The position numbers were made by a program, and so were the translations under genes. A stretch of 64,000 bases of DNA. Origin: Myxococcota bacterium (GTDB lineage: Bacteria; Myxococcota_A; UBA9160; SZUA-336). Below, in pieces: positions 1,891 to 19,584 of this stretch. The DNA lies in assembly GCA_046757685.1 (NCBI GenBank), contig JBHHYV010000006.1, positions 283-64,282 on the forward strand. Reading direction: 5' to 3'. The notes below the pieces were generated by a model that was given only the letters and a program-made list of their open reading frames with translations, did not search any database and had not been told where the DNA came from. Position 1 is the stretch's first letter, and the number at the start of each line of letters is the position of its first letter.

Positions 1891-1913
1891 CGGCTGTGGT
1901 CGGCCCGTCAGTC

Positions 1914-2609
1914 TCAGTCGAGCGAGATCCGGAGTGCCGCCGCCGTGGCCACCGGAGTGAACGAGAGCGCCGCGACCCAGAAGGCCGCGAGCAGCGACAG
2001 CTGCCCCTGCGCTCCCAGACCGGAGATCTCGGCCTGCACGGCCCCGGCGCCAAAGATCAGGACCGGGACGTACAACGGTAGCACCAGGATCGAGACCAGC
2101 ACTCCGCCTCCCCGAAGCCCCAGGGTCAGGGCGGCCGCGATCGCCCCGACCGCGCTCAGCACCGGTGTGCCCAGCAGCAGCGACAGGGCCAGCACGCCGA
2201 GGCTCTCGGGGGGCAGCCCGTACTGGAGGGCCAGCAGCGGGGCGATCGCCACCAGCGGGGCGCCGGTCGCGATCCAGTGGGCGACGACCTTTGCCAGGAC
2301 CAGGAGCGCGAGCGACTGGGGAGCGACGAGCATCTGCTCGAGGGTGCCGTCCGCGTGGTCGCTCGCAAAGAGCCGCCCCAGCGCGAGCATCTGGGCGAGC
2401 AGGGCCGCGACCCAGAGCACTCCGGGGCCGAGCACGCGCAGGGTCTCCATCTCGGGACCGACCCCGAGGGGAAAGAGGCTGGCGACGATCACGAAGAAGA
2501 AGAGCGACGAGAGCACGTCGGAGCGGCGGCGCAGGGCCAGGGTCAGGTCGCGCCGGACCAGGCTGCCGGTGGCGCCGAGCGTCGCTCCGAGGAGGGTGCC
2601 CGCGCTCAT
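1914..2609 (-). CDS. ccmB: haem exporter permease CcmB
   Basis: 231-aa hydrophobic protein between ccmA and ccmC. Its start overlaps the ccmA stop (ATGA). Confidence 0.85.
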   Translation of the reverse strand: MSAGTLLGATLGATGSLVRRDLTLALRRRSDVLSSLFFFVIVASLFPLGVGPEMETLRVLGPGVLWVAALLAQMLALGRLFASDHADGTLEQMLVAPQSLALLVLAKVVAHWIATGAPLVAIAPLLALQYGLPPESLGVLALSLLLGTPVLSAVGAIAAALTLGLRGGGVLVSILVLPLYVPVLIFGAGAVQAEISGLGAQGQLSLLAAFWVAALSFTPVATAAALRISLD

Positions 2610-3301
2610 GGGCCGAGGTCGAGGACCTTCGCGAGGCCCGCCTGGAGTGTCACCGAGCGATGGCTGGCGAGCAGCACCCGGCCTCCCCGGGACAGGTGCT
2701 CGGCGACCGTCGCGCGCACCGTCTCGAGGGCATCGGAGTCCAGCGCGTTGAAGGGCTCATCGAGGATCCAGAGCGGGGCCGGCGAGACCAGCAGCCGGCA
2801 GAGCGCGGCGCGGCGCCGCTGGCCCTGGGACAGGAGCTTGGTCGGAAGCTCCTCGCAGGCCGCCAGGCCGAGGCGCTCGAGCGCGAGCGACAGCTCCTTG
2901 GCCGTGACGGTCGCGCGGGCCAGGCTTGCGGCGAAGCGCAGGTTCTCCCGGCAGGTGAGCTCCGCCTGGAGCGCGTCGAAGTGGCCGATGTAGCACAGCT
3001 GCGCCCGGAACTCCTCGCCGAGCGCCCCGATCCGCGATCCGCGCCAGCGAACCTCTCCCCGCGTGGGCCGGACGAGGCCGCAGACCGTGCGCAGGAGGGT
3101 CGTCTTGCCGCAGCCGTTGGGGCCGCGCACGTGGATCCACTCGCCCTCTCCCAGCTGGAAGTCGATCCCCGAGAAGAGCCGTCGCTCGCCGCGGTCGCAG
3201 GTCAGTCCATCGGCCTCGAGCACGGGCGTGAGGGTGTGCTTCTCGGGCCCGATCCGCACGCGCCGGGCCGGCTGGCTGCGGCCGCCGCGGGCTCTCTCCA
3301 C
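2606..3301 (-). CDS. ccmA: cytochrome c biogenesis ABC ATPase CcmA
   Basis: Walker A GPNGCGKTTLLR, ABC signature LSQGQRRR and Walker B LWILDEP. The start could instead be GTG at 3223. Confidence 0.85.
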   Translation of the reverse strand: MERARGGRSQPARRVRIGPEKHTLTPVLEADGLTCDRGERRLFSGIDFQLGEGEWIHVRGPNGCGKTTLLRTVCGLVRPTRGEVRWRGSRIGALGEEFRAQLCYIGHFDALQAELTCRENLRFAASLARATVTAKELSLALERLGLAACEELPTKLLSQGQRRRAALCRLLVSPAPLWILDEPFNALDSDALETVRATVAEHLSRGGRVLLASHRSVTLQAGLAKVLDLGP

Positions 3302-3393
3302 CCGCTGCGGCGACGCGCGGGCGGACCGCCCCCTTGCCTTGTCCGCATCGGTGACGAGAGTAGGGGTGATCCAGGAGAAAGGAGGTAGCCATC

Positions 3394-3894
3394 ATGATGA
3401 GACGTTCCCTCATTCCGTGGCACCGCCGCTCGAAGCCGGTGCCGATCCATCGCGAGATGAGCCCGTTCCTCTCGCTGCGCCGCGAGCTGGACGACGTCTT
3501 CGGAGAGTTCCTGCGCGACTTCGATCTCGCGCCCTCCCTGTGGGGCTTCGGAGCGCAGGCCTTCGAGCCCTCGCTCGACGTCCACGAGACGGAGGACGAG
3601 ATCCAGGTGAGCGTCGAGCTCCCCGGCGTCGAGGAGAAGGACATCGAGGTCAGCGTCTCCGAGGAGGCGCTCACGATCCGCGGCCAGAAGAGCCAGGAGC
3701 GAGAGCACTCCGAGAGGGGGGCGCAGTGGCAGGAGCGATCCTACGGGTCGTTCGAGCGCACGCTCCCGCTGCCGCCGGGAGTGGAGGTCGGCAAGGCCGA
3801 GGCCCGCTTCCAGCGCGGCGTGCTGACCGTGACGCTGCCCAAGAGCCAGGAGGCCCAGCGGGCGGTGCGGCGGCTCGAAGTGAAGGGCGAGTAG
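3394..3894 (+). CDS. Hsp20/alpha-crystallin family small heat-shock protein
   Basis: Alpha-crystallin domain: PSLDVHETEDEIQVSVELPGVEEKDIEVSV...ERSYGSFERTLPLP...RGVLTVTLPK. A strong AGGAGAAAGGAGG ribosome-binding site lies upstream. Confidence 0.9.
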   Translation: MMRRSLIPWHRRSKPVPIHREMSPFLSLRRELDDVFGEFLRDFDLAPSLWGFGAQAFEPSLDVHETEDEIQVSVELPGVEEKDIEVSVSEEALTIRGQKSQEREHSERGAQWQERSYGSFERTLPLPPGVEVGKAEARFQRGVLTVTLPKSQEAQRAVRRLEVKGE

Positions 3895-4000
3895 GCGCGT
3901 CGGCTCCCGGCCCCGCTCGCGGCCGCCCGTCGCGGGAGGGGCGGGCGGGCCGGGAAGGCGCCTCGGTTCGTCTCCGTCGTCCGATCCAAAGGAGTGCACG

Positions 4001-4444
4001 ATGCAGATTCGCACGATTCTCGTCCCCGTCGACTTCTCGAACCACTCGGACCGGGCGCTCCGGTACGCGCTCGAGATCGCCCAGCACTTCGGTGCGAGGC
4101 TGCATCTCTTTCACGCGTACAGCCTGCCGGCCGGACCGGCGACGGCCTACGACTACATGATTCCAGCCGACCTCTCCGCAGGGCTGCGGGAGGCGGCGAT
4201 CCAGCGCCTGGACGAGCTCGCGAAGACCCTCGAGCAGAAGGGCGTCGAGGTGACGACCGAGGTCTCCCAGGGTGTCGCGAGCCAGGCGATCTGCGACGCG
4301 GTCGAGCGGGAGAAGCCCGACCTGCTGGTGATGGGGACCCGGGGCCTCTCGGGTCTCAAGCACGTGCTGCTGGGTAGCGTCACCGAGCGGACGCTGCGCA
4401 GGGTGCGCTGTCCGGTGCTGACGCTGCACGCGGACTCCGCCTGA
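4001..4444 (+). CDS. universal stress protein (UspA family)
   Basis: ILVPVDFSNHSDRALRYA...DLLVMGTRGLSGLKHVLLGSVTERTLRRVRCPVLTL, a typical Usp ATP-binding fold. Confidence 0.9.
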   Translation: MQIRTILVPVDFSNHSDRALRYALEIAQHFGARLHLFHAYSLPAGPATAYDYMIPADLSAGLREAAIQRLDELAKTLEQKGVEVTTEVSQGVASQAICDAVEREKPDLLVMGTRGLSGLKHVLLGSVTERTLRRVRCPVLTLHADSA

Positions 4445-4612
4445 TCGAGCAGGAGATCCGCCGGTACCGGGCGCCTTGTCGGGGCAGCGTGTCCCAGAGA
4501 GGACCGAGTCGTGCAACCCCGACCCAGCCTGGATCCGGCGAAAATTCCCTCGCGCTTTCCAAAGCTCACCTAGTTCGGATGCTTCCCGCTCTCGTTGCTG
4601 GATATCAAGTGC

Positions 4613-4628
4613 TGGTACAGTGTTTGCA
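4613..4628 (+). promoter_or_regulatory. candidate sigma-54 (-24/-12) promoter
   Basis: TGGTACagtgtTTGCA has GG (4614-4615) and GC (4626-4627) at the canonical 12-nt offset of TGGCACG-N4-TTGCW. It sits in a locally AT-richer patch 108 nt upstream of the ATG at 4737. Confidence 0.55.
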
Positions 4629-4736
4629 TCTTCGATTGGCGAGCTGGGCGGTCCGGGTGGAGCCCTGATTCCCACGCCCCTCCCCGCGGCCCGGGCCGCC
4701 CTGGCGTTCTGGTAGGATGAACTCGAGAGGAGAGCT

Positions 4737-5366
4737 GTGATGCCTTGGAATCGCTGCAAGTACGCCATCGGGGTCTTCGCGATCGTGCTGACATTTGGGT
4801 ACGGCTCGCAGAGCCTCGCGGCCATTACGGGGACGGATCACGACTTCTCCACGCAGGGATTCAGCGGCGGAGAGATCTGTGTGGTATGCCACACGCCGCA
4901 CTTCTCGGATACCACCGTGGTCGATGCGCCCCTGTGGAACCACGAGCTCACGACGCAGAGCTTCACGCCCTACTCGAGCGCGACCCTTGACGCGGCGGTC
5001 GGACAGCCTCAGGGCATCTCGAAGCTCTGCTTGAGCTGCCACGACGGCTCCGTCGCAGTCGATGCGTTCGGCGGGAAGCCCGGCGGCAGCTTCTTCGTGC
5101 CGCCTCAGGACCAGGTCGGGACCGACCTGAGCAATGACCACCCGATCTCGTTCGTCTTCGACGCCAGCCTCGCCTCCACGGATGGCTCGCTCTTCGATCC
5201 CACGACGAAGAGCTCGGGCCTGGGCGGGACGATCGACCAGGACATGCTCTTCTCCGGCAATCTCGAGTGCGCTTCGTGTCACGACGTGCACGACTCGGGG
5301 TTCCCCGAGTTCCTGGTGAAGTCCAACGCGGGTAGCGGGCTCTGCCTGACCTGCCACGACAAGTAG
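4737..5366 (+). CDS. secreted tetrahaem c-type cytochrome (paired-CXXCH type)
   Basis: Signal peptide plus four CXXCH motifs (CVVCH, CLSCH, CASCH, CLTCH). HDFS...CVVCHTPH is typical of doubled-CXXCH domains. Paralogous to the N-terminus of ORF 11566..13269. Confidence 0.85.
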   Translation: MMPWNRCKYAIGVFAIVLTFGYGSQSLAAITGTDHDFSTQGFSGGEICVVCHTPHFSDTTVVDAPLWNHELTTQSFTPYSSATLDAAVGQPQGISKLCLSCHDGSVAVDAFGGKPGGSFFVPPQDQVGTDLSNDHPISFVFDASLASTDGSLFDPTTKSSGLGGTIDQDMLFSGNLECASCHDVHDSGFPEFLVKSNAGSGLCLTCHDK

Positions 5367-5384
5367 TGACAACCGGTTCGCCGA

Positions 5385-5420
5385 CCCCGGGGAGCGCCGC
5401 CAGCGGCCCGCTCCCTGGGG
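5385..5420 (+). promoter_or_regulatory. intercistronic GC-rich stem-loop
   Basis: CCCCGGGGAGCG (5385-5396) pairs with CGCTCCCTGGGG (5409-5420): a 12-bp stem with one G-U pair and a 12-nt loop. No U-tract follows. Confidence 0.45.
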
Positions 5421-5461
5421 GCTCGCTGGCGACGGCATAGCATCGGCCGGGGACTGGAGCC

Positions 5462-6628
5462 GTGGAGCGCAGGAGTAGGAGGGTCCATCCTCATCCGGCC
5501 GCCGGAGCCGTGCGCTTCGGGCTCCTGCTCTTCGTCTCCGGATGCCTCTTCGCGAGAGCCCCCGCGCCCCCCCCCGAGGACGTCTTCTACCCCGCACCTC
5601 CTCAGGAGCCCAGGATCCAGTACCTGGCGACCTTCGAGTCGACGCGTGATGTCGTAGGCCCGCCGAGCTGGTTCCGGCGCTTCGTGGTCGGGGACGAGCC
5701 GGCCTCCGGGCTCGGAAAGCCCTACGGAGTGGCGATCCACGGCGGCGAGATCTTCGTCTGCGACACCCGCTCGAACGTGGTCGTGATCATGAATCTCGTG
5801 GATCGAAGTGTCGAGCTTCTCGGAGCGCGCGCGAACGGGCGTCTCCACAAGCCGATCAACGTGGCCGTCGACGACGACGGCACCCGCTACGTGGCCGATA
5901 CCGGCTTGCGGCGAATCCTGGTCTACGACTCGACGAATGCGTTCCAGCGCGCCTACGGCGACCCCGAGCGCTGGTCTCCCTCCGATCTCGCGATCTCGGG
6001 AGAGCGTCTCTACGTCGCGGACGTGCGAAACGGACGGGTCGCGGTGCTGGACAAGGCCACGGGCCGCGAGCTTGGACGCATCGGTCGCAAGGGAAGCGGG
6101 CGCGGCGAGTTGGTGTTCCCGACGAACGTCGCGGTCGATCGGAACGAGCACGTCTTCGTCGCCGACACGGGCAACTCCCGGGTCGTCGAATTCGCCCCCG
6201 ACGGGGAGTTCGTGCGCCAGATCGGCTCGCTCGGAAGGAAGCTCGGCCAGTTCGTGCGTCCCAAGGGAATCGCCGTGGATCGGGAGGGGAGAGTCTACGT
6301 CGTGGACTCCGCCTTCGAGAACGTCCAGATCTTCGACTCCGAGGGAAGGCTCCTGCTCTTCTTCGGGGGCCGCGGCAATGCACCCGGGGGGCTGAATCTG
6401 CCTGCGACCGTCGCTGTCGACTACGACAACGTCGGACTCTTCGCCGATCGGGTCGCCGCGGGTAGAGAGATCGAACATCTGATCCTGGTGAGTAGCCAGT
6501 TCGGCAGGAACAAGGTGAACGTCTACGGGTTTCTCGCTCCGGCTCGTCCCGGGGGCGCTACCCAGACGGGGCGCACCCAGGACGGGCCTCGGAGTCGTGC
6601 CCATGCTGGGCAGGGCGCTCGGCGATGA
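5462..6628 (+). CDS. NHL-repeat beta-propeller lipoprotein
   Basis: Lipobox LLLFVSGC. Repeated NHL-type blades, e.g. PYGVAIHGGEIFVCDTRSNVVVIMN, INVAVDDDGTRYVADTGLRRILVYD, FPTNVAVDRNEHVFVADTGNSRVVEF and PKGIAVDREGRVYVVDSAFENVQIFD. No CXXCH. Confidence 0.85.
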   Translation: MERRSRRVHPHPAAGAVRFGLLLFVSGCLFARAPAPPPEDVFYPAPPQEPRIQYLATFESTRDVVGPPSWFRRFVVGDEPASGLGKPYGVAIHGGEIFVCDTRSNVVVIMNLVDRSVELLGARANGRLHKPINVAVDDDGTRYVADTGLRRILVYDSTNAFQRAYGDPERWSPSDLAISGERLYVADVRNGRVAVLDKATGRELGRIGRKGSGRGELVFPTNVAVDRNEHVFVADTGNSRVVEFAPDGEFVRQIGSLGRKLGQFVRPKGIAVDREGRVYVVDSAFENVQIFDSEGRLLLFFGGRGNAPGGLNLPATVAVDYDNVGLFADRVAAGREIEHLILVSSQFGRNKVNVYGFLAPARPGGATQTGRTQDGPRSRAHAGQGARR

Positions 6629-6646
6629 ATCCGAGGGATCGAGAAG

Positions 6647-7891
6647 ATGCCTGCAGAGCCCGCCGGGTCGCGAGATCGGATCCCGCGAATCGCTCGGGCG
6701 GGGCGAGATCTGGCCGGGTGGGGTCTGCTCGTCCTGGCAGCGGGCGTCGCTGCGGATGCTGCAGAGGTGCCCTCGCGCGTCGGCCCTGACGCTGCATGCG
6801 TCACCTCCGGGTGTCACGCTCCGGTGGTGGGGTTCCGGTACCCACACTGGACCGAGGCAGGGACAGAGTGCCGAAAGTGCCACCTCCCGGTGAACGGGAA
6901 GCACGTCTTCGAGACCGCGGACGCCCCGGAGCTGTGCAACCAGTGCCACTCCCCCGTCAACGGGGACGCGGACGTCCACGATCCAGCAGAAGACGGATGC
7001 CTGGACTGCCACGATCCCCATGGATCGGACACACCGGCGCTGCTCACGGCTCCGAGCGAGTCCGAGCTCTGCTTCGAATGCCACGATGAGGAGTCCTTCG
7101 AGCCTGCCGTTCCCCATGACCCTGTCGAATCGGGGGAGTGCACCGCATGCCATGATCCCCACTCCTCTCCTCACGACAATCTGCTGGTCGCAGTGGGACG
7201 GGAGCTCTGTGGGGACTGCCATGACGAAGTCGTCGAGGTCGCGGAGACCTCGAAGACGGGTCACGCCGCTGCGCTCGAAGGACGGCAATGTCTCTCGTGC
7301 CACGCGCCCCACGGTTCGGAACAGGAGGCGCTCCTGGTCCGACCCCTGGTCGATCTCTGTCTAAGCTGTCACGACCGTCCGATTTCGGTGGGGGAGAGGA
7401 CGCTCATCGACGTCGACCAGTGGCTCGAAGAGCATGATGACTGGCACGATCCAATCCTGAAGAACGGCTGCAGCGCCTGTCACGAACCCCATGGCGGAGA
7501 GCAGCTTCAGCTGCTCCGGAAGTCGTTTCCACCGGGCCTCTATGCCCACTTCGCGACGCACAGCTATGCGCTGTGCTTCTCGTGTCACGATCCGAACCTG
7601 GCGCGCTCCAGGCGGACCCGGTCCGCGACCGGATTCCGCGACGGAGATCGAAACCTCCACCGCGTCCACGTCGACCGAGGGGACCGCGGCCGGACCTGCC
7701 GGGTATGCCACGATGCGCACGCGGCCGGGAATCCCAAGCTCGTTCGGGAGAGCGTTCCCTACGGGATGTGGAAGCTACCGATCGGGTACGAGGCTCTGCT
7801 GACGGGCGGCTCCTGTCATCCAGGCTGCCATTCGGCGAAGACCTACGACCGCGATCGGAGCCTCCCCGGCAGAAGCAGGGCGTCGCCATGA
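6647..7891 (+). CDS. secreted multihaem c-type cytochrome (11 CXXCH + CX4CH + CX3CH)
   Basis: Signal peptide ending ADA-AE. Eleven CXXCH motifs, mostly CxxCHDPH-type, plus CVTSGCH near the N-terminus and SCHPGCH near the C-terminus. Confidence 0.85.
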   Translation: MPAEPAGSRDRIPRIARAGRDLAGWGLLVLAAGVAADAAEVPSRVGPDAACVTSGCHAPVVGFRYPHWTEAGTECRKCHLPVNGKHVFETADAPELCNQCHSPVNGDADVHDPAEDGCLDCHDPHGSDTPALLTAPSESELCFECHDEESFEPAVPHDPVESGECTACHDPHSSPHDNLLVAVGRELCGDCHDEVVEVAETSKTGHAAALEGRQCLSCHAPHGSEQEALLVRPLVDLCLSCHDRPISVGERTLIDVDQWLEEHDDWHDPILKNGCSACHEPHGGEQLQLLRKSFPPGLYAHFATHSYALCFSCHDPNLARSRRTRSATGFRDGDRNLHRVHVDRGDRGRTCRVCHDAHAAGNPKLVRESVPYGMWKLPIGYEALLTGGSCHPGCHSAKTYDRDRSLPGRSRASP

Positions 7892-8469
7892 GGCGGGCTG
7901 TAGCCCTGGCGCTGGTGCCCCTCCTCTCGATCGCGCTGGGAGCCGGATGCCTGTCTCCTCGGAGCCGTCATCGTCTGCTCACGACGTTCTTCGACGGAGT
8001 GCCTCCGCTCGAGCGAGAGCTGCCCGAGGGAGCTGCGCCCCCACCCCGCGTCGCTTCGGTCACGCCCAGCGGGAGCCCGCGTCCCGCGGCTCCCGTGCTG
8101 CTGCTTCACGATCCATACTCGGATCGCGCCTGCACCGAGTGTCACGATGCGGATCGCTCGAACCGCCTGATCGACAAGGTCCCAGAGCTGTGCTGGAGCT
8201 GCCACGACGCCGAAGACTACGAAGGGAGCGTCACCCACGGCCCGGTGGCCGCCGGGCGCTGCCTGGCCTGCCACGATCCACACCGGTCGCCCAACGAGTC
8301 GCTTCTGGTGCGTGCCCCCGCCTCGCTCTGCACGGGTTGTCACGACCGGCAGACCTTCCCGGAGCTCGAGCGCCACCGGCAGCGCGAGGGCGCCGACTGT
8401 CTCGGCTGCCACGATCCCCATGCCTCGGACCACGACTACATGCTCGACCGTCCCTCGGGGTCGTCATGA
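7888..8469 (+). CDS. pentahaem c-type cytochrome lipoprotein
   Basis: Start taken at the internal ATG (MRRAVALALVPLLSIALGAGC, lipobox-like), which overlaps the upstream stop (ATGA). Five CXXCH motifs (CTECH, CWSCH, CLACH, CTGCH, CLGCH) and an FFDGVPP motif. Confidence 0.8.
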   Translation: MRRAVALALVPLLSIALGAGCLSPRSRHRLLTTFFDGVPPLERELPEGAAPPPRVASVTPSGSPRPAAPVLLLHDPYSDRACTECHDADRSNRLIDKVPELCWSCHDAEDYEGSVTHGPVAAGRCLACHDPHRSPNESLLVRAPASLCTGCHDRQTFPELERHRQREGADCLGCHDPHASDHDYMLDRPSGSS

Positions 8470-10469
8470 GCGGGGTGAGGCGCCCATCTCGCGGGCGGGT
8501 CTGCGTGCCGGGGCTGATGTGGGCGGGGGCCTTCGGCCTGCTGGTCGCACTGACGCTCGTGGCCGGGACTGCCTTCGCGCAGCAGATCCGCCTGGCGCGC
8601 GTGACGGAGGTGAGCGGCTACACGGAGCTGGGCCTTCGGGCCGAGAAGGACCGCCGAGACCGCAACAGCAAAGGGAGCGCGCTCCGCTCCAGCGAGCTCC
8701 GCCTCGATCAGCTGCTGCATCTCGATCTGGATGGGTATCTCTATCACCCGCGCTTCGTTCGCTTCCATGGCTCGGGCGAGCTGCACTTCTTTCAGACGCC
8801 CGTGAGCGGCGGTTCCTCCGTGCTCCGGAGCGTCGACCGGGAGCTCGCGAGTGGGAGCTGGATCCTGACCTTTCTCGAGGAGCACCCCTATGGACTGAAC
8901 GTATTCGGAAACGTGTCGGACCAGGACGTGGATGCGAGCTTCACCCCTACGTTCCTGCTCCACAACGAGCTCTTCGGGGCGACGTTCCACTTCCGCCGGG
9001 GCCCGCTGCCCTTCCAGGTCACCTACGATCAGCGTTCGCGGGCGGGTACGGGTCCCACCTCGGTAATCGACGAGGTCGGAACGGACTTCTCGGTCCGCTC
9101 CGACTACCGGATCGGGGAGAGCTCGCAGGGGGGGCTGGAGTATCGCCGCAGCGTCGACGACATCCGCCAGCAGGACCAGATCATCGACCGGAGCTCCTTC
9201 TCGGTCGACAATGTGACCTATCTCGATCCGGAGCGACGCAGGAGACTGAGAGGCAACCTTCGCTTCTTCCAGCAGGTGGACGTCAGCCGCCTCACCCGGC
9301 TCTCGGCCCTCGGCGGCCTCGACTGGCGCCACTCGAAGCGGCTGACGTCTCGCCTGAACTTGGATCTCGAGCAGACTCGCATCGCCGGTCAGCGAACGAC
9401 GAACTGGAACCTGGAGGCGGGAGCCCGCCATCAGCTCTACGAGAGCCTCGCCTCGGACCTCGCGATCTACGCTCGTCTCCAGGACGCTACGTTCGGAAGC
9501 GACAACAGCTTCGGCGGGACGCTCTCGGAGCAGTACACGAAGCGCCTTGGCGGATGGGGGCGAGTGAACCTCAGCTTGATCCCCTTCGGTCAGCTTGAGC
9601 AGATTCGTTCGAGCCAAGACACGGCTCAGGTCGTCGACGAAGGCCAGGTCCTCCAGGACGCGGTCCCGGCCGTGCTCAAGCAGCCGGATGTCCTCCCTGG
9701 ATCCATCGTCGTGACGGACGCCGCCGGGCTCATCGTCTTCCAGGAGAGCCTGGACTACGCGGTCCAGATCCGAGGAAGCCAGACCGAGATCCTGAGGCTG
9801 GCGGGCGGAGCGATCGCGAATCTCGACACGGTGCTCGTCGACTACGAGCACCGACTCCCGAGCGCGCAGGATGTCCTGCTCTCGGGGGTCAACGGCCAGC
9901 TTCGGGTCTCGCTTCCCCTCGGGATCGCGCTCTTCGGGACGTTGCTCGACCAGAATCAGCGCAAGCTCTCGGGCGACCTGACCTCCAAGCTGGAGTCGCG
10001 CAATCGCCTGTCTAGCGGCATCGAGCTCAACAGGACCTGGATGTCCGCGCGAGTCGAGGCCGAGCGAGAGACCTCGACCTTCGCCTCCTTCCGGGCGCTC
10101 TCGCAGACCCTGAGCTTGTTCACCGAGAGCGGATCGGCATGGCGGGGACGCGTTTCCGGGACTCACCGCCAGCTCCGCTATACGGACTCCGACCAGAGGA
10201 TCTCCCGCACCCTGGCCGCGGCGACCCTTCGCCGGCAGTTCTTGACCTCGGGACGCCTCGAGCTGGCGATCGACTACGAGCGAACGCGCTGGTCCGGTGG
10301 AGTCAACCCGGAGTTCAACGATGTCGATGGACTGGGTGTGAAGGCGTCCCTCGAGTGGTCGTTTCGTCGCATCACGGTCACGGTCACCGGGAATCTCAAG
10401 CGGCTCGAACGGCTGCAGCAGCGGGAGAGGCAGAATCGGATCCTTCTGCGGGTCCGGAGAGACTTCTAG
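8466..10469 (+). CDS. putative outer-membrane beta-barrel protein (porin partner of the cytochromes)
   Basis: The ATG overlaps the upstream stop (ATGA). Signal peptide ...LVAGTAFAQQ, no Cys, many short alternating polar/hydrophobic stretches, and a C-terminus ...ILLRVRRDF ending in Phe. I did not recognise a family. The call rests on composition and context. Confidence 0.55.
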   Translation: MSGVRRPSRGRVCVPGLMWAGAFGLLVALTLVAGTAFAQQIRLARVTEVSGYTELGLRAEKDRRDRNSKGSALRSSELRLDQLLHLDLDGYLYHPRFVRFHGSGELHFFQTPVSGGSSVLRSVDRELASGSWILTFLEEHPYGLNVFGNVSDQDVDASFTPTFLLHNELFGATFHFRRGPLPFQVTYDQRSRAGTGPTSVIDEVGTDFSVRSDYRIGESSQGGLEYRRSVDDIRQQDQIIDRSSFSVDNVTYLDPERRRRLRGNLRFFQQVDVSRLTRLSALGGLDWRHSKRLTSRLNLDLEQTRIAGQRTTNWNLEAGARHQLYESLASDLAIYARLQDATFGSDNSFGGTLSEQYTKRLGGWGRVNLSLIPFGQLEQIRSSQDTAQVVDEGQVLQDAVPAVLKQPDVLPGSIVVTDAAGLIVFQESLDYAVQIRGSQTEILRLAGGAIANLDTVLVDYEHRLPSAQDVLLSGVNGQLRVSLPLGIALFGTLLDQNQRKLSGDLTSKLESRNRLSSGIELNRTWMSARVEAERETSTFASFRALSQTLSLFTESGSAWRGRVSGTHRQLRYTDSDQRISRTLAAATLRRQFLTSGRLELAIDYERTRWSGGVNPEFNDVDGLGVKASLEWSFRRITVTVTGNLKRLERLQQRERQNRILLRVRRDF

Positions 10470-10477
10470 GGGTCCAC

Positions 10478-11569
10478 GTGGGTCAGCGAGCCAGCGTCCA
10501 CCGATCGCGCTCCAGAGCTCCCCACACGTCCCCGGCGCTCCGGGTCGGGCTGGCAGCGCTCTGGGGCCTGGGGCTCTGGGCCGCGATCGCCTGCGCTCGC
10601 CCTCCCAGCCCGCGCGCCTGGGACGCGCCCGGCGAGTCTCGCGTCTGGCCCGCCGGGCCCGACCCCGGTCGGATCGAGTATGTCGGGGCACTGCAGTCGG
10701 GCGAGGACCTGGGACGGCCCAGGGGACTCCTGGAGCGCCTGGTCCGCGGTCTCGCCGGAGCGGAGCCAGACCGGATGCTCGCGCCGCTCGCGGTTGCGGT
10801 CACTCCTTCAGGCCTCCTGGTCGTGGCCGATCCCGGCGTACCGACGCTCCACTTCTTCGATCTCGGGCGCCGCCGCTACGATCGGCTGGATGCCGACGCC
10901 GCTCGGACCCTGCGTTCTCCCGTCGGGGTCGCGGTGGCGGACGGCGGTCGCACCTTCGTGTCGGACTCGGCGCTCGGACGGGTCTTCGTCTTCGATGCCG
11001 ATCGCCGGAGGATCGGCGACTTCGGAGCCGGAGTCCTGCAGCGACCCACGGGCCTCGCTCTCGATCCGAGCCAGGATCATCTCTACGTGGTCGATACGCT
11101 GGCCTGCCAGGTGGTCGTCTTCGATGTCGCGGGGCGACCGGTGCGGCGCTTCGGAGAGCGTGGGACGGGCCCCGGCCAGTTCAATGGTCCGACCCACATC
11201 GCGATCGCCCCGGATGGAACGATCGCGATCTCGGACTCGCTCAACTTCCGGGTCCAGGTCTTTCACCCGGATGGCACCCTGAGCCACTCCGTCGGTCGTC
11301 CAGGAGACGTGGCGGGAAGCTTCGCCCGCCCGAAGGGCGTCGGCTTCGACTCGTTCGGGAATCTCTACGTGGTGGATGCCGCCTTCGAGAACGTCCAGAT
11401 CTTCGGTCCCGAGGGAGCCCTCCTGCTTGCATTCGGCCACGCGGGCGGCGGGATCGGGGGCTTCTCTCTCCCGGCCGGGATCGCGATCGATGACAGAGAC
11501 AGGATCTGGGTCGCAGATTCCTTCAACCAGCGCGTCCAGGTCTTTCGGCTGCGCCCAGGTCCGCGATGA
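10478..11569 (+). CDS. NHL-repeat beta-propeller lipoprotein (paralogue of 5462..6628)
   Basis: GTG start 8 nt after the upstream stop. Lipobox LWAAIAC. NHL blades include PLAVAVTPSGLLVVADPGVPTLHFFD, PTGLALDPSQDHLYVVDTLACQVVVFD, PTHIAIAPDGTIAISDSLNFRVQVF and PKGVGFDSFGNLYVVDAAFENVQIF. Confidence 0.8.
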   Translation: MGQRASVHRSRSRAPHTSPALRVGLAALWGLGLWAAIACARPPSPRAWDAPGESRVWPAGPDPGRIEYVGALQSGEDLGRPRGLLERLVRGLAGAEPDRMLAPLAVAVTPSGLLVVADPGVPTLHFFDLGRRRYDRLDADAARTLRSPVGVAVADGGRTFVSDSALGRVFVFDADRRRIGDFGAGVLQRPTGLALDPSQDHLYVVDTLACQVVVFDVAGRPVRRFGERGTGPGQFNGPTHIAIAPDGTIAISDSLNFRVQVFHPDGTLSHSVGRPGDVAGSFARPKGVGFDSFGNLYVVDAAFENVQIFGPEGALLLAFGHAGGGIGGFSLPAGIAIDDRDRIWVADSFNQRVQVFRLRPGPR

Positions 11570-13269
11570 GGCCGCGGCGCGTGGCGATGGGGCTCGGCCT
11601 GCTGGCGGCGACTCTGCTGCCGCCGGGAAACGCGGGAGCACAGATCGTTGGATCCAAGCACGATCTCTCGGTCAGCGGCCAGGGACCGGTGAAGTCGTCG
11701 GGCGAGAGCGAGGTATGCATCTTCTGCCATACACCCCACAACGCCGCGCCGGCGACTCCGCTCTGGAACCGGACGCTCCCCAGCTTGACCTACACTCCCT
11801 ATTCCAGCTCCACCCTGCAGTCGCAGCCGGGTCAGCCTACCGGCGCTTCGAAGCTCTGTCTCAGCTGCCACGACGGGACGATTGCGCTCGGCTCCGTGCT
11901 GAGCCGCGCCGCGCCCATTCCCATGACCGGAGCGCTCCCACCGCACTCCGACCTGACGACGGATCTCTCCGACGATCATCCCGTCTCGTTCGTCTACGAC
12001 TCCTCGCTGGCCGCGGCGGACCCCGAGATCGTGGATCCGACCCTCCTGCCTCAGGGCATCCGGACCGACCCGAACGGGCAGCTCCAGTGTACGAGCTGCC
12101 ACGAGCCGCACTCCAATCTGCACGGGGACTTTCTCGTCGTGGCCAACGGCTTCTCGGCACTCTGTCTCGCCTGTCACGAGAAGGTGGGGTGGCCGGGGAG
12201 CGCGCACGAAACCTCGTCCGCGACCTGGAACGGAGCGGGCGTCGACCCGTGGCCGCACACCGACGAGATCACGGTTGCAGCCAATGGCTGCGAGAACTGC
12301 CACGCTCCCCACGCAGCGGGATCGGCCCAGTGGCTGCTGAACGAGCTTCGGGAAGAGGACAACTGCCTCGCGTGTCACGAGGGAACCGTGGCCACGCTGG
12401 ACATCGGAGGCGAGCTGCAGAAGCCCTTCCGCCACCCCGTAGGTGCCTTCCTGGGACTGCATCATCCCGAGGAGGACCCGCGCCAGATGCCCCGACACGT
12501 CGAGTGCGAGGACTGCCACGATCCGCACGCGGCGACCCAGGGAAGCGCGTTCCCCCCTGATGTCAGCGGACCCCTCGTGGGAGCCTCAGGCGTCTCGGCA
12601 TCCGGGAGCCCGGTCGCCGTGGCGAGCTTCCAGTACGAGGTCTGCTTTGCATGCCACGCGGAGGGAGCGGGCGTACCCCCCCCAGGCGTGACACGGCAGA
12701 TTCTGGAGCCGAGCTTGAGGCTCAAGCTCGACGCCTCCAATCCGTCGTTCCATCCAGTCGAGGCCCCGGGTCGGAACCCGAGCGTACCGAGCCTCCTGTC
12801 GCCCCTCTCGGAAGCCTCTCTGATCTACTGCACCGACTGCCATGCCAGCGACGACGGCCCGGGGAGCGGAGGTTCGGGTCCCGCGGGCCCCCATGGCTCC
12901 ATCTGGCCTGCGCTGCTGGAGCGCGAGTACCGGACCGGGGATGGAACCAGCGAGAGCTTTCAGGCCTACGCGCTCTGCTACAAGTGCCACGACCGAAGCA
13001 GCATCCTGGGAAACCAGAGCTTCTCCGAACACCGCAAGCACATCGTAGGGGAAAGGGCTCCGTGCTCCGCATGCCATGACCCCCATGGGATCAGCGTCAC
13101 GGAGGGCGACGCGACTCACAACTCGCATCTCATCAACTTCGACGTCGACATCGTGTCGCCGAACCCCTCGAACGGTCGCCTCGAGTTCGTGGACCTTGGC
13201 ATTCGCACCGGGAAATGCAGCCTCGAGTGCCACGGCGAGCGTCACGACGACAAGTCCTATCGGCCCTGA
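11566..13269 (+). CDS. secreted multihaem c-type cytochrome (11 CXXCH + CX3CH)
   Basis: The ATG overlaps the upstream stop (ATGA). Signal peptide ...GNAGA-QIV, 11 CXXCH motifs and a C-terminal CSLECH. The first ~200 aa are collinear with the tetrahaem protein at 4737..5366. Confidence 0.85.
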   Translation: MRPRRVAMGLGLLAATLLPPGNAGAQIVGSKHDLSVSGQGPVKSSGESEVCIFCHTPHNAAPATPLWNRTLPSLTYTPYSSSTLQSQPGQPTGASKLCLSCHDGTIALGSVLSRAAPIPMTGALPPHSDLTTDLSDDHPVSFVYDSSLAAADPEIVDPTLLPQGIRTDPNGQLQCTSCHEPHSNLHGDFLVVANGFSALCLACHEKVGWPGSAHETSSATWNGAGVDPWPHTDEITVAANGCENCHAPHAAGSAQWLLNELREEDNCLACHEGTVATLDIGGELQKPFRHPVGAFLGLHHPEEDPRQMPRHVECEDCHDPHAATQGSAFPPDVSGPLVGASGVSASGSPVAVASFQYEVCFACHAEGAGVPPPGVTRQILEPSLRLKLDASNPSFHPVEAPGRNPSVPSLLSPLSEASLIYCTDCHASDDGPGSGGSGPAGPHGSIWPALLEREYRTGDGTSESFQAYALCYKCHDRSSILGNQSFSEHRKHIVGERAPCSACHDPHGISVTEGDATHNSHLINFDVDIVSPNPSNGRLEFVDLGIRTGKCSLECHGERHDDKSYRP

Positions 13270-13426
13270 CTCGCAGTCCTCCAGGAAGGCCCAGGACGGT
13301 CCCCCGGCGAGGCATCCTGTCCCCGATGTGGCGAAACGACTCTCGAAGACCCAGAGCCTTGCCTCTGCGAATGACGCAACGCGCCGAGCGAGGCCGGCCG
13401 GTCGGCGCCGGTGGGCGTTCTGCGCG

Positions 13427-13443
13427 AGGCACGCGAATTGCAA
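13427..13443 (+). promoter_or_regulatory. candidate sigma-54 (-24/-12) promoter
   Basis: AGGCACGcgaaTTGCAA is a near-perfect match to TGGCACG-N4-TTGCW, with GG at 13428-13429 and GC at 13440-13441. It lies in the gap after 13269 and inside the 5' extension of track ORF 13411..14160. Confidence 0.6.
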
Positions 13444-13509
13444 ATCTGGCCCCGCAGTGGGCCTCACGGACCGGAGGACGGGACGGGGCGCCACGGCGCG
13501 GAGGATCGC

Positions 13510-14160
13510 GTGGAGAGCGAGAGGCAGCCGACGGCCGGGTCCGGAGACGGTGGCGCTGGCAGTCCGCCGCCCTATCAGCTCGCGACGTGGGCGCTGTTGG
13601 GCGTCGCGGTCGTGGTGGTGCTGGGGCTCCTCTCCCTTCGCTGTTCACTCGGCCCCCATACGCCGCGTAGCTACTCGAGCCGGACGCTTCCTGCCGAGCC
13701 CACCCCGCGCCTGCTCCCGCCGCCGGCCTGGGACGACTCGGAGTATCCGTGCAGCGATTGTCACGAAGACGAGCCGACGAACCGGACGGTACGGATGCTC
13801 GAAGAGGAGCATGACGAGCTCGAGTTCACGCACGGGAACATCTGGTGCCTGGACTGCCACGATGCAGACCAACGCGATCGACTCCACCTGGCGAATGGGA
13901 CTCTCGTCGATTTCGACGACTCCTGGCGGCTCTGCACCCAGTGCCACCCGCACAAGCTCGCGGATTGGAGAGCGGGAGTGCACGGCAAGCGGACCGGCAG
14001 CTGGTGGGGCACCAAGAGCTACCAGACGTGCGTGAGCTGCCACGATCCCCACTCCCCGCACTTCAAGCCTCTTGCGCCCAAGCCCCCTCCCCAGAGACCG
14101 GGCCAGATCGTTGCCAGGGCGCACGTACCGTGGGAGAAGCCCTCGAATGAAGGACGCTGA
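13510..14160 (+). CDS. membrane-anchored tetrahaem c-type cytochrome (NrfB/CbcS-like position)
   Basis: Start reassigned to GTG 13510, which has a GGAGGA 4 nt upstream and lies downstream of the sigma-54 motif. One TM helix (WALLGVAVVVVLGLLSL) and four CXXCH motifs (CSDCH, CLDCH, CTQCH, CVSCH). Confidence 0.75.
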   Translation: MESERQPTAGSGDGGAGSPPPYQLATWALLGVAVVVVLGLLSLRCSLGPHTPRSYSSRTLPAEPTPRLLPPPAWDDSEYPCSDCHEDEPTNRTVRMLEEEHDELEFTHGNIWCLDCHDADQRDRLHLANGTLVDFDDSWRLCTQCHPHKLADWRAGVHGKRTGSWWGTKSYQTCVSCHDPHSPHFKPLAPKPPPQRPGQIVARAHVPWEKPSNEGR

Positions 14161-15076
14161 CTCGACGGGCGTGCAAGGCGCGCACAGAGCCTCGCGCCGG
14201 AAGTTCCTGAAGGGCGCCGCAGCGGGCCTGGGTGCGCTCGCCGGTGTTCCGGCGGCTGCGCAGGCCTTCGACCTGGAGGCCTTCTTCCAGAAGCACTTCC
14301 GCCTGCTCTCGGACGAAGAGCTTGCCGAGACGCTGAGACGGCTGCAGCGCAGGTACTCCAAGCGCTACGGCAAGGAAGTGCGCGTGTCCGCCACCGGGCC
14401 CGTCGATGGGGTGGTCTTCGGCTACGGTCTCGACGTCTCGCGCTGCATTGGCTGCAGGCGCTGCGTCTACGCCTGCGTAGAGGAGAACAACCAGTCCCGC
14501 GATCCGGAGATCCAGTGGATCCGTGTGCTGGAGTTCGAGCGCGAGAAGGCGATCCGCCGCATCGATCTCGATGAGGGCAATCCCTACTACGACGCCGAGC
14601 AGGTCCCCGAACCGGGGAAGTTCTACCTTCCGATCGCTTGCCAGCAGTGCGAAGACTCCCCGTGCACCAACGTCTGCCCGACGGGTGCGACTTGGCGCGA
14701 GCCCGACGGGATCGTGGTCATCGACTACGACTGGTGCATCGGGTGCCGATACTGCATGGCCGCGTGCCCCTATGGGGCAAGGCACTTCAACTGGGGCGAG
14801 CCTCAGCTCGACTCGGAGGAGCTGAACCCCGATACCCACTTCCTGGGGAACCGGCCGCGACCCAAGGGGGTGGTCGAGAAGTGCACGTTCTGCATCCAGC
14901 GAGTCCGGAACGGGCGCTATCCAGCCTGCGTCGAAGCGTGTCCGGTCGGGGCTCGCAAGTTCGGAAACCTGCTCGATCCGAAGAGTGAGATCCGCTACCT
15001 GCTCGAGCACAAGAGGACCTTCGTCCTCAAGGCCGAGCTCGAGACCCGGCCCAAGTTCTTCTACTTCTACGGCTGA
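14147..15076 (+). CDS. Tat-exported 4Fe-4S ferredoxin-type subunit (NrfC/PsrB/HybA family)
   Basis: Twin-arginine signal SRRKFLKGAAAGLGALA. Multiple CxxCxxCxxxCP clusters (CIGCRRCVYAC, CQQCEDSPCTNVCP, CIGCRYCMAACP, CTFC...CVEACP). Confidence 0.85.
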   Translation: MKDADSTGVQGAHRASRRKFLKGAAAGLGALAGVPAAAQAFDLEAFFQKHFRLLSDEELAETLRRLQRRYSKRYGKEVRVSATGPVDGVVFGYGLDVSRCIGCRRCVYACVEENNQSRDPEIQWIRVLEFEREKAIRRIDLDEGNPYYDAEQVPEPGKFYLPIACQQCEDSPCTNVCPTGATWREPDGIVVIDYDWCIGCRYCMAACPYGARHFNWGEPQLDSEELNPDTHFLGNRPRPKGVVEKCTFCIQRVRNGRYPACVEACPVGARKFGNLLDPKSEIRYLLEHKRTFVLKAELETRPKFFYFYG

Positions 15077-15112
15077 GCGAGTCGCGGATCATGAAGGGGA
15101 GTCGCTAGCGCC

Positions 15113-16333
15113 ATGCGGAGCCTGCGGAGCTTCTGGAGCTTCATCGAGGGGAGCGCGTCGATCTTGCTTCGAGGGAGTCGCGCCTACTTCGGGTGGATCG
15201 CCTTCCTCGTGACGATGATCCTCATCGGGGGCGTCGCCTATGCCAATCAGGCGATCTTCGGCCTGATCACCTCGAATATGCGCGACCAGGTTTCCTGGGG
15301 ATTCTACATCGGGAACTTCGCGTTCATGGTGGGAGTGGCGGCGGCCGCGGTGGTGCTGGTCATCCCGGCCTACGTATACGATTGGAAGCCGATCCGAGAG
15401 GTGGTGCTACTCGGCGAGCTGATGGCAATCGCGGCAATCATCATGTCCGTTCTCTTCGTAACAGTGGACCTGGGTCGCCCGGAGCGCTTCTGGCATCTCC
15501 TCCCGCTCCTGGGAAACCCGAACTTCCCGTTCTCGCTTCTCGTCTGGGACGTTCTCGTTCTGAGCGCCTACTTCCTGATCAACTACTTCATCGTGACTTA
15601 CCTGCTCTACAAGGGGTATACCGGTCAGAAGTACAGCAGCGCCTTCATTCTTCCGATCATCTTTCTCTCGATTCCGCTCGCTGTCTCGATTCATACGGTC
15701 ACTGCCTTCCTCTTCATGGGTCTCAAGGCGAGAGGCTTCTGGCACACTGCAATCTTGGCGCCGCGCTTTCTGGCCAGTGCGTTCTGCTCGGGTCCGGCGA
15801 TCCTGCTGCTGATCTTTCAGGTGCAGCGGCGCGTCGGGACCATACCGATCTCGGATAGGGCCCTGCGGAAGATCGGAGAACTGATCGCCTACGCGCTGGC
15901 GGTGAACCTGTTCTTCGTCGCCGCGGAAGCGTTCACCGAGTTCTACGCTCTGAGAGCCGAGTCGATCCATGCCGAGCTCCAGTGGTTCGGGGTACCGGGG
16001 CGGAGAGACATCGCGTTCTACAGCTGGGTGTCCCTGGGGACCCAGATCCTCGCGTTCATCGGGTTCGCGGTCCCCGCACTCAGGAACCGTTTCGTGGTGC
16101 TGAACTTCGCCAGCGTTCTGGCGATCGTGGGCGTGTTCATCGAGAAGGGAATGGGCCTGCTGGTGCCCGGGATGACGCCCGACATGCTTGGGGAGGTGTA
16201 CTTCTATGTTCCCAGCATGAACGAGGTGCTCGTGGCGGTGGGCGTATGGGGAGTGGGTGCGCTGCTGTTCACGCTGATGTCGAGAGTAGCGATGGCGGTC
16301 AGCGATGGTAGCCTTCGTCAGCCGGCCAGTTGA
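15113..16333 (+). CDS. NrfD/PsrC-family polytopic quinol-interacting membrane subunit
   Basis: 406-aa protein with about 10 hydrophobic helices, immediately after the FeS subunit. N-terminal region typical of NrfD-like proteins (WGFYIGNFAFMVGVAAA). Confidence 0.85.
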   Translation: MRSLRSFWSFIEGSASILLRGSRAYFGWIAFLVTMILIGGVAYANQAIFGLITSNMRDQVSWGFYIGNFAFMVGVAAAAVVLVIPAYVYDWKPIREVVLLGELMAIAAIIMSVLFVTVDLGRPERFWHLLPLLGNPNFPFSLLVWDVLVLSAYFLINYFIVTYLLYKGYTGQKYSSAFILPIIFLSIPLAVSIHTVTAFLFMGLKARGFWHTAILAPRFLASAFCSGPAILLLIFQVQRRVGTIPISDRALRKIGELIAYALAVNLFFVAAEAFTEFYALRAESIHAELQWFGVPGRRDIAFYSWVSLGTQILAFIGFAVPALRNRFVVLNFASVLAIVGVFIEKGMGLLVPGMTPDMLGEVYFYVPSMNEVLVAVGVWGVGALLFTLMSRVAMAVSDGSLRQPAS

Positions 16334-16372
16334 AGCGCGACAACCGAATGCCGCGCACGGGGGGTAGCGGGA

Positions 16373-17050
16373 ATGAGTGGGAGGACCGTCAGGCTCGCAT
16401 TGGGGGCTGCCGCACTGGGAGTTGCGTTGACGGCCTCCGCTGGAGTGAAGAAGGTCGTTCCTGAGCACAGATACGTCGGGGTAAAGAAGTGTCGGACCTG
16501 CCACAAGAAGGAGCTCATCGGAGACCAGTACGGAAAGTGGCGGGAGGGCGTGCACGCGAAGGCGCTCGAGACCCTGCGCGGGGACAAGGCGCGCGAGTTT
16601 GCCCAGAAGAAGGGCATCACCGCCCCGCCCTGGGAGAGCGAAGACTGCCTCAAGTGCCATGTGACCGCCTACGGAGTCGATGAGCGCTGGCTGCCCAGCC
16701 GGCCTCTCGATCCTGCGGACGGGGTTCAGTGCGAGTCGTGTCACGGCCCCGGTCACGACTACCGCAAGAAGAAGATCACGTCGAAGCACGAGACCGCCCT
16801 GAAGAAGGGCCTCTGGGAAGCGGGAAAGGACCCCGAGATCTGTACCCGCTGTCACAACGACGAGAGCCCGGCCTGGGATCCGAGCAAGTTCGAACGGGCC
16901 GACGGAACGACGGCCGGCTTCGACTTCGAGCTGGCCAAGAAGAAGATCCAGCACCCCATTCCCAAGGAAGTGAAGGGCCACTACATCGAGCTCGAGAAGA
17001 AGCAGCGGGCCAAGAAGCGAGCCCGCAGGGAACAGGAACAGGAAGAGTAG
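16373..17050 (+). CDS. secreted tetrahaem cytochrome, c554-like family
   Basis: Signal peptide plus CRTCH, CLKCH, CESCH and CTRCH. YVGVKKCRTCHKKELIGDQYGKWREGVHAKA is typical of the Cytochrome_C554-type fold. Lys/Glu-rich C-terminal tail. Paralogue at 26269..26928. Confidence 0.85.
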   Translation: MSGRTVRLALGAAALGVALTASAGVKKVVPEHRYVGVKKCRTCHKKELIGDQYGKWREGVHAKALETLRGDKAREFAQKKGITAPPWESEDCLKCHVTAYGVDERWLPSRPLDPADGVQCESCHGPGHDYRKKKITSKHETALKKGLWEAGKDPEICTRCHNDESPAWDPSKFERADGTTAGFDFELAKKKIQHPIPKEVKGHYIELEKKQRAKKRARREQEQEE

Positions 17051-17077
17051 ATTCCCGGGGCTCGGGGCTCGGGGCGA

Positions 17078-19569: not shown

Positions 19570-19584
19570 GGGTCCTCCCTTCCC

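Follow-up and report, generated by a model that had tools for sequence, protein, structure and literature searches.

Probable OmcE-type extracellular cytochrome system encoded with two propeller lipoproteins and a large predicted barrel in a Myxococcota genome

Open reading frames (ORFs) were called across a 64 kb stretch of contig JBHHYV010000006.1 from a Myxococcota bacterium, referred to here as the window (64,000 nucleotides in all), and seven tightly packed, co-directional genes were found on the + strand at 4740-13269. These genes are labelled G1 to G7 in order, and loci from other genomes that were compared with them carry labels such as L001-L006 and L053-L090. The cassette joins a cytochrome of the OmcE nanowire-subunit family to further multihaem cytochromes, two NHL propeller lipoproteins, and a large predicted outer-membrane barrel, and its probable product is an extracellular cytochrome system of the OmcE type that is mounted on that barrel. 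Its features are the following.

4613..4628, + strand: sigma-54-type -24/-12 promoter motif, TGGTAC-N5-TTTGCA, ~110 bp upstream of G1
4740..5366, + strand: G1, secreted OmcE-family tetrahaem cytochrome and candidate nanowire subunit, 208 aa (4 CXXCH, homology to 7TFS/9YUQ)
5462..6628, + strand: G2, NHL six-bladed beta-propeller lipoprotein, type A (Pfam NHL, DUF5128, lipobox VSGC)
6647..7891, + strand: G3, secreted 11(+2)-haem MtrA/DmsE-like cytochrome, accessory, GSU0615 type (11 CXXCH, partial match to TIGR03508)
7888..8469, + strand: G4, pentahaem lipoprotein cytochrome (5 CXXCH, lipobox-like GAGC)
8466..10469, + strand: G5, large predicted outer-membrane beta-barrel of ~28-30 strands, 667 aa (structural model, Foldseek, C-terminal Phe)
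10478..11569, + strand: G6, NHL six-bladed beta-propeller lipoprotein, type B, with a GTG start (Pfam NHL, lipobox AIAC)
11566..13269, + strand: G7, secreted 12-haem cytochrome with an OmcE-like N-module and an 8-haem extension (11 CXXCH and an invariant CX3CH, profile searches)

From G1 to G7 the products carry 4, 0, 11 (with an additional CX4CH and CX3CH), 5, 0, 0, and 11 (with an additional CX3CH) CXXCH motifs, and ATGA start/stop overlaps are seen at 7888, 8466, and 11566. The promoter motif, TGGTACAGTGTTTGCA at 4613-4628, was the sole match to TGGYAYN5TTGCW when the 64 kb window was scanned (0.02 expected by chance), and the same motif lies upstream of the G1 orthologues in 6 of 52 other loci, where our estimate of the chance expectation is ~0.06. 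No sigma-54 enhancer-binding protein was found among the 20 flanking ORFs scanned. A scan for terminators and sigma-70 promoters over 4300-17600 gave nothing above chance, and the boundaries of a G1-G7 operon are therefore placed from gene spacing. A first-pass annotation, made from the DNA letters alone, had described a seven-gene co-directional layout behind a sigma-54-type promoter, and both are upheld, the former by the coordinates and strand and the latter by the unique match and its recurrence; the ATGA overlaps, haem counts, and lipobox +2 residues (L, A, L) that it gave are likewise correct at the sequence level. Its gene list was right in composition but overlooked that G1 is OmcE-like and that an OmcE-like module opens G7, and the membrane-anchored tetrahaem gene at ~13510-14160 and the quinol-oxidoreductase-like module at 14147-17050 also escaped it.

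When G1 was searched with phmmer against the Protein Data Bank (PDB), only two entries matched, both over the full length: 7TFS, the OmcE filament of Geobacter sulfurreducens (E 1e-24), and 9YUQ (E 1e-18), whose identity was confirmed as the Desulfuromonas soudanensis OmcE bundle. G1 is 34% identical to the former and 32% to the latter, and the two solved subunits are only 39% identical to each other. G1, the N-terminal 200 residues of G7, and their counterparts in orthologues were aligned with the two solved subunits, and every OmcE haem ligand is invariant in this alignment (8 Cys, 4 proximal His, and 4 distal His). In G1 these are C47/C50/H51, C97/C100/H101, C177/C180/H181, and C202/C205/H206, with H34, H54, H134, and H184 as the distal ligands. 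Judged by these residues and by homology, G1 is a secreted member of the OmcE nanowire-subunit family with the complete haem-ligand set of both solved subunits. Its neighbourhood is also that by which OmcE homologues were picked in a recent preprint, namely a barrel ("secretion or anchor") together with a propeller lipoprotein, a combination reported there from five phyla (bioRxiv 10.1101/2025.10.22.684050); in the window, a large predicted outer-membrane barrel (G5) and propeller lipoproteins (G2 and G6) are encoded in the same cluster as G1.

The same family reappears at the start of G7. A G7 profile found 7TFS in the PDB at E 2e-42 over residues 7-208, and the hidden Markov model (HMM) of G1 covers G7 residues 7-206 (E 1e-61). 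The OmcE-like module proper spans residues ~26-208 with the OmcE ligand set invariant, and the remaining ~360 residues contain eight further haem motifs, so that G7 reads as an OmcE-like module fused to eight further haems. A search for OmcE-like repeats in the C-terminal part returned generic paired-CXXCH similarity alone, over ~63 columns; the idea that G7 might be three OmcE units in a row was rejected, its C-terminal two thirds being without such repeats. G7 is unusually conserved, with 53-69% identity across phyla and 16 invariant non-motif His, among them H214. Stand-alone OmcE-type proteins (7TFS, 9YUQ, and G1 with its orthologues) all stop at CxxCH-x-K, whereas the G7 chain runs on past its fourth haem motif and reaches the invariant H214 ten residues later (window 12190-12210). 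This residue is a candidate for the "ninth histidine" of the kind postulated for a stopper protein (bioRxiv 10.1101/2025.10.22.684050).

G5 matched no Pfam or NCBIfam family, the MtrB_PioB Pfam model and the NCBIfam porin models included, and its C-terminus reads RVRRDF. Its AlphaFold2 (AF2) model, calculated from a 17-sequence alignment, is all-beta, with ~29 long antiparallel strands, a predicted local distance difference test score (pLDDT) of 87.1, and a predicted template modelling score (pTM) of 0.70. Foldseek searches of the PDB with this model returned large outer-membrane barrels only (TonB-dependent receptors, LptD, ushers, and MtrB); the top TM-score, 0.45/0.46, was to MtrB (6r2q_B), which is a resemblance at the level of the fold only. 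The confident model and the Foldseek matches together identify G5 as a predicted very large outer-membrane beta-barrel, in agreement with the earlier description of a 667-aa barrel candidate, for which a barrel prediction had been proposed as the test. Its family has 3532 representatives of 50% clusters at E<=1e-3. The best conserved part of the family is a small beta domain inserted at residues ~399-465 (window 9660-9860). In this insert D430, R444, V456, V458, and Y460 are invariant and Y431 is nearly so, and the domain, ~65 aa long, may serve as a plug or for docking. PF27730 (UCP028589) is listed for two distant homologues of the barrel and was faint where its strength was shown.

Both propeller genes are clear members of the NHL family (Pfam NHL, E 2e-21 for G2 and 6e-29 for G6), and the 6-bladed DUF5128 model matches each of them. 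Six blade motifs spaced 42-48 aa apart can be seen by pattern in G6; four were found by pattern in G2, with two degenerate ones added by eye. The lipoboxes read VSGC in G2 (+2 L) and AIAC in G6 (+2 A), and neither protein contains CXXCH, as expected from the first description of two six-bladed NHL lipoproteins free of haem motifs. Orthologues of G2 with 41-64% identity occupy the same position in L001-L006. An NHL protein, Gmet_0556, has been cited as important for Fe(III) reduction. Of the two other cytochromes, G3 has its additional motifs at residue 51 (CX4CH) and residue 390 (CX3CH) and matches TIGR03508 in part (E 3e-32), and both G3 and G4 show partial matches to the DmsE/MtrA family. 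In the Pfam and NCBIfam searches the multihaem cytochromes came out as members of the paired-CXXCH type. G4 contains three Paired_CXXCH_1 stretches, and the Cys that follows its signal sequence in the lipobox-like GAGC (+2 L) is conserved among orthologues. In the scored loci described next, G4 always lies directly upstream of the barrel gene, and G3 is present in 35 of 80, in variable position, which marks it as accessory.

To compare the cassette across genomes, the nearest and more distant barrel homologues on long contigs were taken, from a Myxococcota metagenome-assembled genome (MAG; L001), a Binatia MAG, a Kiritimatiellota MAG, and the MAGs of L003 and L006. All five loci share a tetrahaem cytochrome, an NHL protein, an optional 11-13-haem cytochrome, a pentahaem lipoprotein, the barrel, a second NHL protein, and a cytochrome of ~560 aa. 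A scan for the G7 family with one genome per species gave at least 588 loci, of which the best 80 were scored with a local HMM for each gene. The six-gene core, G1, G2, G4, G5, G6, and G7, is complete in 48 of these 80, most of the others being cut by contig ends, and it is arranged either as G1-G2-G4-G5-G6-G7 or as the circular permutation G6-G7-G1-G2-G4-G5. By record title, the carriers include Calditrichota, Bacteroidota/Ignavibacteria, Nitrospirota, Verrucomicrobiota, Planctomycetota, Acidobacteriota, Desulfobacterota, and Proteobacteria; among cultured bacteria, Desulforhopalus sp. IMCC35007 (L053) and Ignavibacterium carry it. The co-occurrence of NHL, cytochrome, and barrel genes, which had been suggested as a check, is thus decisively confirmed, with six core genes syntenic in many phyla. 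A cassette without G4 was found in a Thioalkalispiraceae MAG (L058, 7220-14844). Additional cytochromes come after it there, together with a cytochrome b561-like protein, a third NHL propeller, and a multihaem cytochrome of 788 aa with an MtrC domain. In the Kiritimatiellota locus L005, an extra OmcE-like paralogue with five CXXCH (14811-15434) adjoins the cassette and fits the "5-haem OmcE-like" class predicted in bioRxiv 10.1101/2025.10.22.684050.

The omcE loci of Geobacter and other Desulfuromonadia were then set beside the cassette. According to the same preprint, the smallest omcE clusters always encode OmcE, two multihaem cytochromes, two beta-propeller lipoproteins, and a large beta-barrel described as "putatively functioning as a secretion or anchor" (bioRxiv 10.1101/2025.10.22.684050), and an OmcE homologue has also been noted beside two NHL proteins in a Geoalkalibacter locus. 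The G. sulfurreducens locus (L087) was found by means of an OmcE sequence rebuilt from the PDB alignment, to which its protein is 98% identical. Its order is purHDE, ppcA, resB, ccsB, a 370-aa cytochrome, a 330-aa 8-haem cytochrome, an NHL lipoprotein, OmcE, a 752-aa protein ending in FF, and glycosyltransferases; a "small" cluster from the Desulfuromonadia (L090) runs cytochrome, cytochrome, NHL, OmcE, NHL, and a 774-aa protein. The G1 HMM finds the OmcE of L087 at 5e-47, and the G6 HMM finds the NHL lipoproteins of these loci at 1e-84 in Geobacter and at 7e-78 and 9e-77 for the two proteins of L090, G6 being their closest relative in the cassette. G3 is 40% identical to the 370-aa cytochrome of L087, and its HMM finds that protein, GSU0615, at 3e-87. 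For the 8-haem GSU0616 the window cassette yielded no counterpart, and the gene HMMs likewise found no G4-like or G7-like genes in the Geobacter and Desulfuromonadia omcE loci. Homology between G5 and the 750-774-aa proteins of the omcE clusters was not detectable (hhalign probability 2%), and hmmsearch with the G5-family profile gave scattered fragments in them at E>=2e-4. On these comparisons, OmcE-type clusters seem to draw on two giant outer-membrane proteins that are unrelated to each other. The large proteins adjoining omcE lie at 10863-13121 in L087, 11017-13266 in L089, and 12055-14379 in L090; they are 750-774 aa long, end in KKFF or KKQF, and have no Pfam match.

Downstream of G7, four genes on the same strand could connect the cassette to the inner membrane.

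13510..14160 (start uncertain, 13411-13618), + strand: membrane-anchored tetrahaem cytochrome (4 CXXCH), 63% identical to the L001 gene at the same position
14147..15076, + strand: Tat-exported 4Fe-4S protein, NrfC/DsrO-like (Fer4_11 and related matches; NF045797 DsrO at 191 bits, just below the cutoff; twin-arginine signal RRKFLK)
15113..16333, + strand: NrfD/DsrP-like integral membrane quinone-interacting subunit (Pfam NrfD, E 8e-41; NCBIfam DsrP at 363 bits against a cutoff of 350)
16373..17050, + strand: cytochrome c554-like tetrahaem protein (PF13435, E 6e-20), with an orthologue after NrfD in L001

The same four genes lie downstream of the cassette in the Myxococcota MAG of L001, and the 13510-17050 module is likely to connect the system to quinones at the inner membrane. 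An electron-transfer island takes up the first 27 kb of the window. A second respiratory complex is encoded on the - strand (17469-22441); it comprises an NrfD-like protein, a 4Fe-4S protein, a molybdopterin-like protein in which only the Fe4S4 and dinucleotide-binding domains are recognised, and a c7-like cytochrome, and it resembles Qrc or alternative complex III. It is followed on the + strand by a 346-aa paired-CXXCH protein (22803-23843) and a second c554-like protein (26194-26928). On the other side of the cassette, 486-4444 contains ccmE, ccmB, and ccmA (System I cytochrome c maturation, - strand); genes for Hsp20 and a universal stress protein come next on the + strand and directly precede the sigma-54 motif. 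Farther away, a histidine kinase with a protoglobin domain is encoded at 42165-43712 (+ strand) and may be a gas or redox sensor.

From the protein identities and the co-conservation described above we infer a path for electrons, in either direction, and roles for G1 and G7 within it. The NrfCD-like module and its tetrahaem partners would exchange electrons with the quinone pool, and periplasmic multihaem cytochromes (G3 and the c554-like protein) would pass them to G4 at or inside the barrel G5. G7 would be held at the barrel, where its 8-haem rod could extend the haem chain, and G4 and G7 together would make up the trans-membrane and anchoring haem chain. Subunits of the OmcE filament are linked through inter-subunit His-haem coordination, and the OmcE-like head of G7 could dock G1 through this same subunit interface, so as to anchor, nucleate, or cap a G1 polymer on the cell surface. 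The G2 and G6 propellers would then be outer-membrane scaffolds or factors for assembly or secretion rather than redox enzymes. Of these roles, that of G7 as a filament anchor or cap is plausible. More specifically, and only tentatively, G7 might be a dedicated terminal subunit of an OmcE-type nanowire, in which the head binds the first or last G1 protomer through the normal His-haem interface, the 8-haem tail plugs into the G4/G5 barrel complex, and H214 satisfies a haem otherwise ligated by the neighbouring subunit. If so, G7 would be the anchor, initiator, or stopper that workers on nanowires report as missing from the Geobacter operons, and it would be present in thousands of genomes from more than 10 phyla.

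Several observations weigh against this interpretation. The polymerisation of G1 into a filament is suggested purely by its homology to OmcE. The AF2 model of G7, from a 49-sequence alignment, was poor, averaging a pLDDT of 58 and falling below 35 in the OmcE-like domain, so that it lends no structural support to the docking of G7 to G1. The OmcE operons studied in the preprint are said to encode no OmcE-like candidate for a tip or stopper (bioRxiv 10.1101/2025.10.22.684050). The Geobacter and Desulfuromonadia omcE clusters contain neither G4-like nor G7-like genes and homology of their barrel to G5 is not detectable, so the machinery is not simply the same. Finally, a G. sulfurreducens strain deleted for five conduit clusters lost metal reduction while keeping the omcE locus, as far as the listed deletions show; because this deletion abolished metal reduction, the omcE barrel alone is not a sufficient conduit in that organism.

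Three other explanations were considered. The cassette could encode a self-contained porin-cytochrome conduit like Mtr or Ext, with no filament, in which G3 or G4 enters G5 from the periplasm, G7 and G1 are monomeric cytochromes of the surface or periplasm, and the NHL proteins stabilise the complex. The composition indeed matches ExtABCD/ExtEFG, G3 and G4 have their partial DmsE/MtrA matches, the G5 model has its best TM-score to MtrB, and Deng et al. proposed NHL propellers as complex stabilisers (PMC5815863). Against such a conduit, the full OmcE ligand set, with all four distal His, is present in both G1 and the head of G7; in addition, G5 (~28-30 strands) is much larger than ExtB and ExtE, predicted to have 18 and 21 strands (PMC6148476), it has no match to the MtrB_PioB Pfam model, and G3, the 12-haem Ext-like element, is dispensable on the locus counts given above. 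We therefore regard a filament-free conduit of this type as unlikely. At the far end of the scale, the propellers could be catalytic or substrate-binding enzymes that the cytochromes merely provide with electrons or relieve of them, and the cluster would then not be an outer-membrane wire but a redox enzyme system of the periplasm. Propeller-cytochrome enzymes do exist in other contexts, and Pfam similarities to SGL/gluconolactonase and arylesterase propellers can be found, but these are weak and partial (E 1e-7 to 2e-4), both propellers are lipoproteins without CXXCH, they co-occur strictly with the giant barrel and OmcE-like proteins, and the same NHL family flanks omcE in Desulfuromonadia, so that an enzymatic role is very improbable.

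The remaining explanation concerns direction: the cassette could be an inward electron-uptake system that oxidises Fe(II), minerals, cathodes, or partner cells and feeds the electrons into the quinone pool or into acceptors in the periplasm. The model for this is the Uet system proposed in "Candidatus Tenderia electrophaga", whose uetABCDEFGHIJ cluster encodes a tetrahaem UetA, a 28-strand barrel UetC, NHL proteins UetH and UetI, and an undecahaem UetJ, is expressed on cathodes, and has electron uptake as its proposed role; its authors also raise the possibility of UetA and UetJ interacting or polymerising (bioRxiv 10.1101/2022.05.06.490989). The core composition of uet is shared by the cassette. 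Uet has further been reported in iron-oxidising Gallionella, NHL-cytochrome clusters of Desulfovibrio ferrophilus are induced during electron uptake (PMC5815863), and the cassette itself is found in MAGs of Nitrospirota, Burkholderiales, and Thioalkalispiraceae. Multihaem chains, however, work both ways, so that sequence cannot settle the direction of flow; OmcE of Geobacter is linked to Fe(III) oxide reduction; and the likeness to Uet is one of composition. Inward transfer is accordingly a possibility that we hold to be doubtful. The OmcE-type system mounted on a large barrel is preferred, as the probable reading of the region.

How nanowires are secreted, anchored, started, and stopped is described as an open question in a 2025 review and in the preprint (bioRxiv 10.1101/2025.10.22.684050). 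The window cassette is compact, has no glycosylation genes, and lies beside a quinone-linked module; the lineage that it comes from is high in GC and does not belong to the Desulfuromonadia. If it makes filaments, OmcE-type wires would be far more widespread than the five phyla reported. G7 is in addition a concrete candidate, open to testing, for what joins the wire to the membrane.

Among known systems, the omcE cluster of G. sulfurreducens (GSU0615-GSU0619) and D. soudanensis is related to the cassette through an OmcE-family subunit with an identical ligand set, the same NHL lipoprotein family, and a GSU0615-type cytochrome corresponding to G3, and it too has a large outer-membrane protein ending in Phe beside the shared genes. 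The published census of omcE clusters (two multihaem cytochromes, two propellers, OmcE, and a barrel) is the six-gene core of the window cassette. The omcE cluster differs in gene order, in its 750-774-aa barrel without detectable homology to G5, and in having an 8-haem 330-aa cytochrome in place of the pentahaem lipoprotein and the OmcE-fused 12-haem protein; the window cassette in turn lacks the glycosylation gene block and has the quinol-oxidoreductase-like module following instead. Set against the Geobacter locus, the cassette is marked out by its unrelated barrel family, the added pentahaem lipoprotein, and the OmcE fusion G7. In the OmcS companion (osc) cluster of G. sulfurreducens, too, a nanowire subunit gene lies amid accessory genes, for which roles in folding, secretion, and morphology are proposed according to the summary of Shen et al. 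2025 in PMC13194489. A porin-like mounting model has been put forward as well; OmcS, however, is unrelated in sequence to OmcE.

The likeness to ExtABCD/ExtEFG that had been pointed out in the first-pass annotation is accurate as a matter of composition when held against PMC6148476, with a 12-haem periplasmic cytochrome, a 5-haem lipoprotein, and an outer-membrane barrel in each case. The Ext barrels are predicted to have 18-21 strands as against ~28-30 in the G5 model, the Ext clusters are without NHL propellers and OmcE-like proteins, and the 12-haem G3 is optional in the window cassette. The idea of an Ext-like outer-membrane electron-transfer system survives as a barrel and multihaem cytochrome cluster, but not as an undescribed one, and G1 belongs to the OmcE family. 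In D. ferrophilus IS5, multihaem cytochromes are encoded with NHL-repeat beta-propellers at DFE_0448-0451 and DFE_0461-0465, and Deng et al. 2018 (PMC5815863) proposed that these propellers stabilise a complex of cytochromes in the outer membrane; compared by description, these clusters share the NHL proteins and multihaem cytochromes with the cassette, and no beta-barrel gene is described there. The "novel porin-MHC" of Verrucomicrobia, which has an 8-haem periplasmic partner (He et al. 2017), could not be equated with the cassette from the text alone.

The parallels with uet are in composition: a tetrahaem cytochrome predicted to be extracellular, a ~28-strand barrel, a pair of NHL proteins, and a cytochrome with 11 CXXCH, with UetI directly upstream of UetJ as G6 is of G7. 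Uet differs in having a peptidyl-prolyl isomerase (PPIase), three trihaem c7 proteins, and a cupredoxin, none of which was found in the window cluster by a Pfam scan, and in having no pentahaem lipoprotein. The Thioalkalispiraceae locus L058 was rejected as a proxy for the Tenderia cluster, the uet gene order not being present in it. The suggestion that the NHL propellers belong to no described conduit fails on the omcE census, uet, the DFE clusters, and the cited Gmet_0556, and that of an undescribed system falls with it, since published omcE clusters, uet, and D. ferrophilus already pair NHL propellers with such cytochromes; a characterised conduit with NHL components therefore largely exists in these described systems, although none of them is yet understood at the biochemical level. 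As a new system the cassette is superseded, and it is a further example of a recognised, recently described, and mechanistically unsolved omcE-type kind. Within that kind it is a sister architecture of the validated omcE cluster rather than a copy of it, and by composition it stands nearer to uet.

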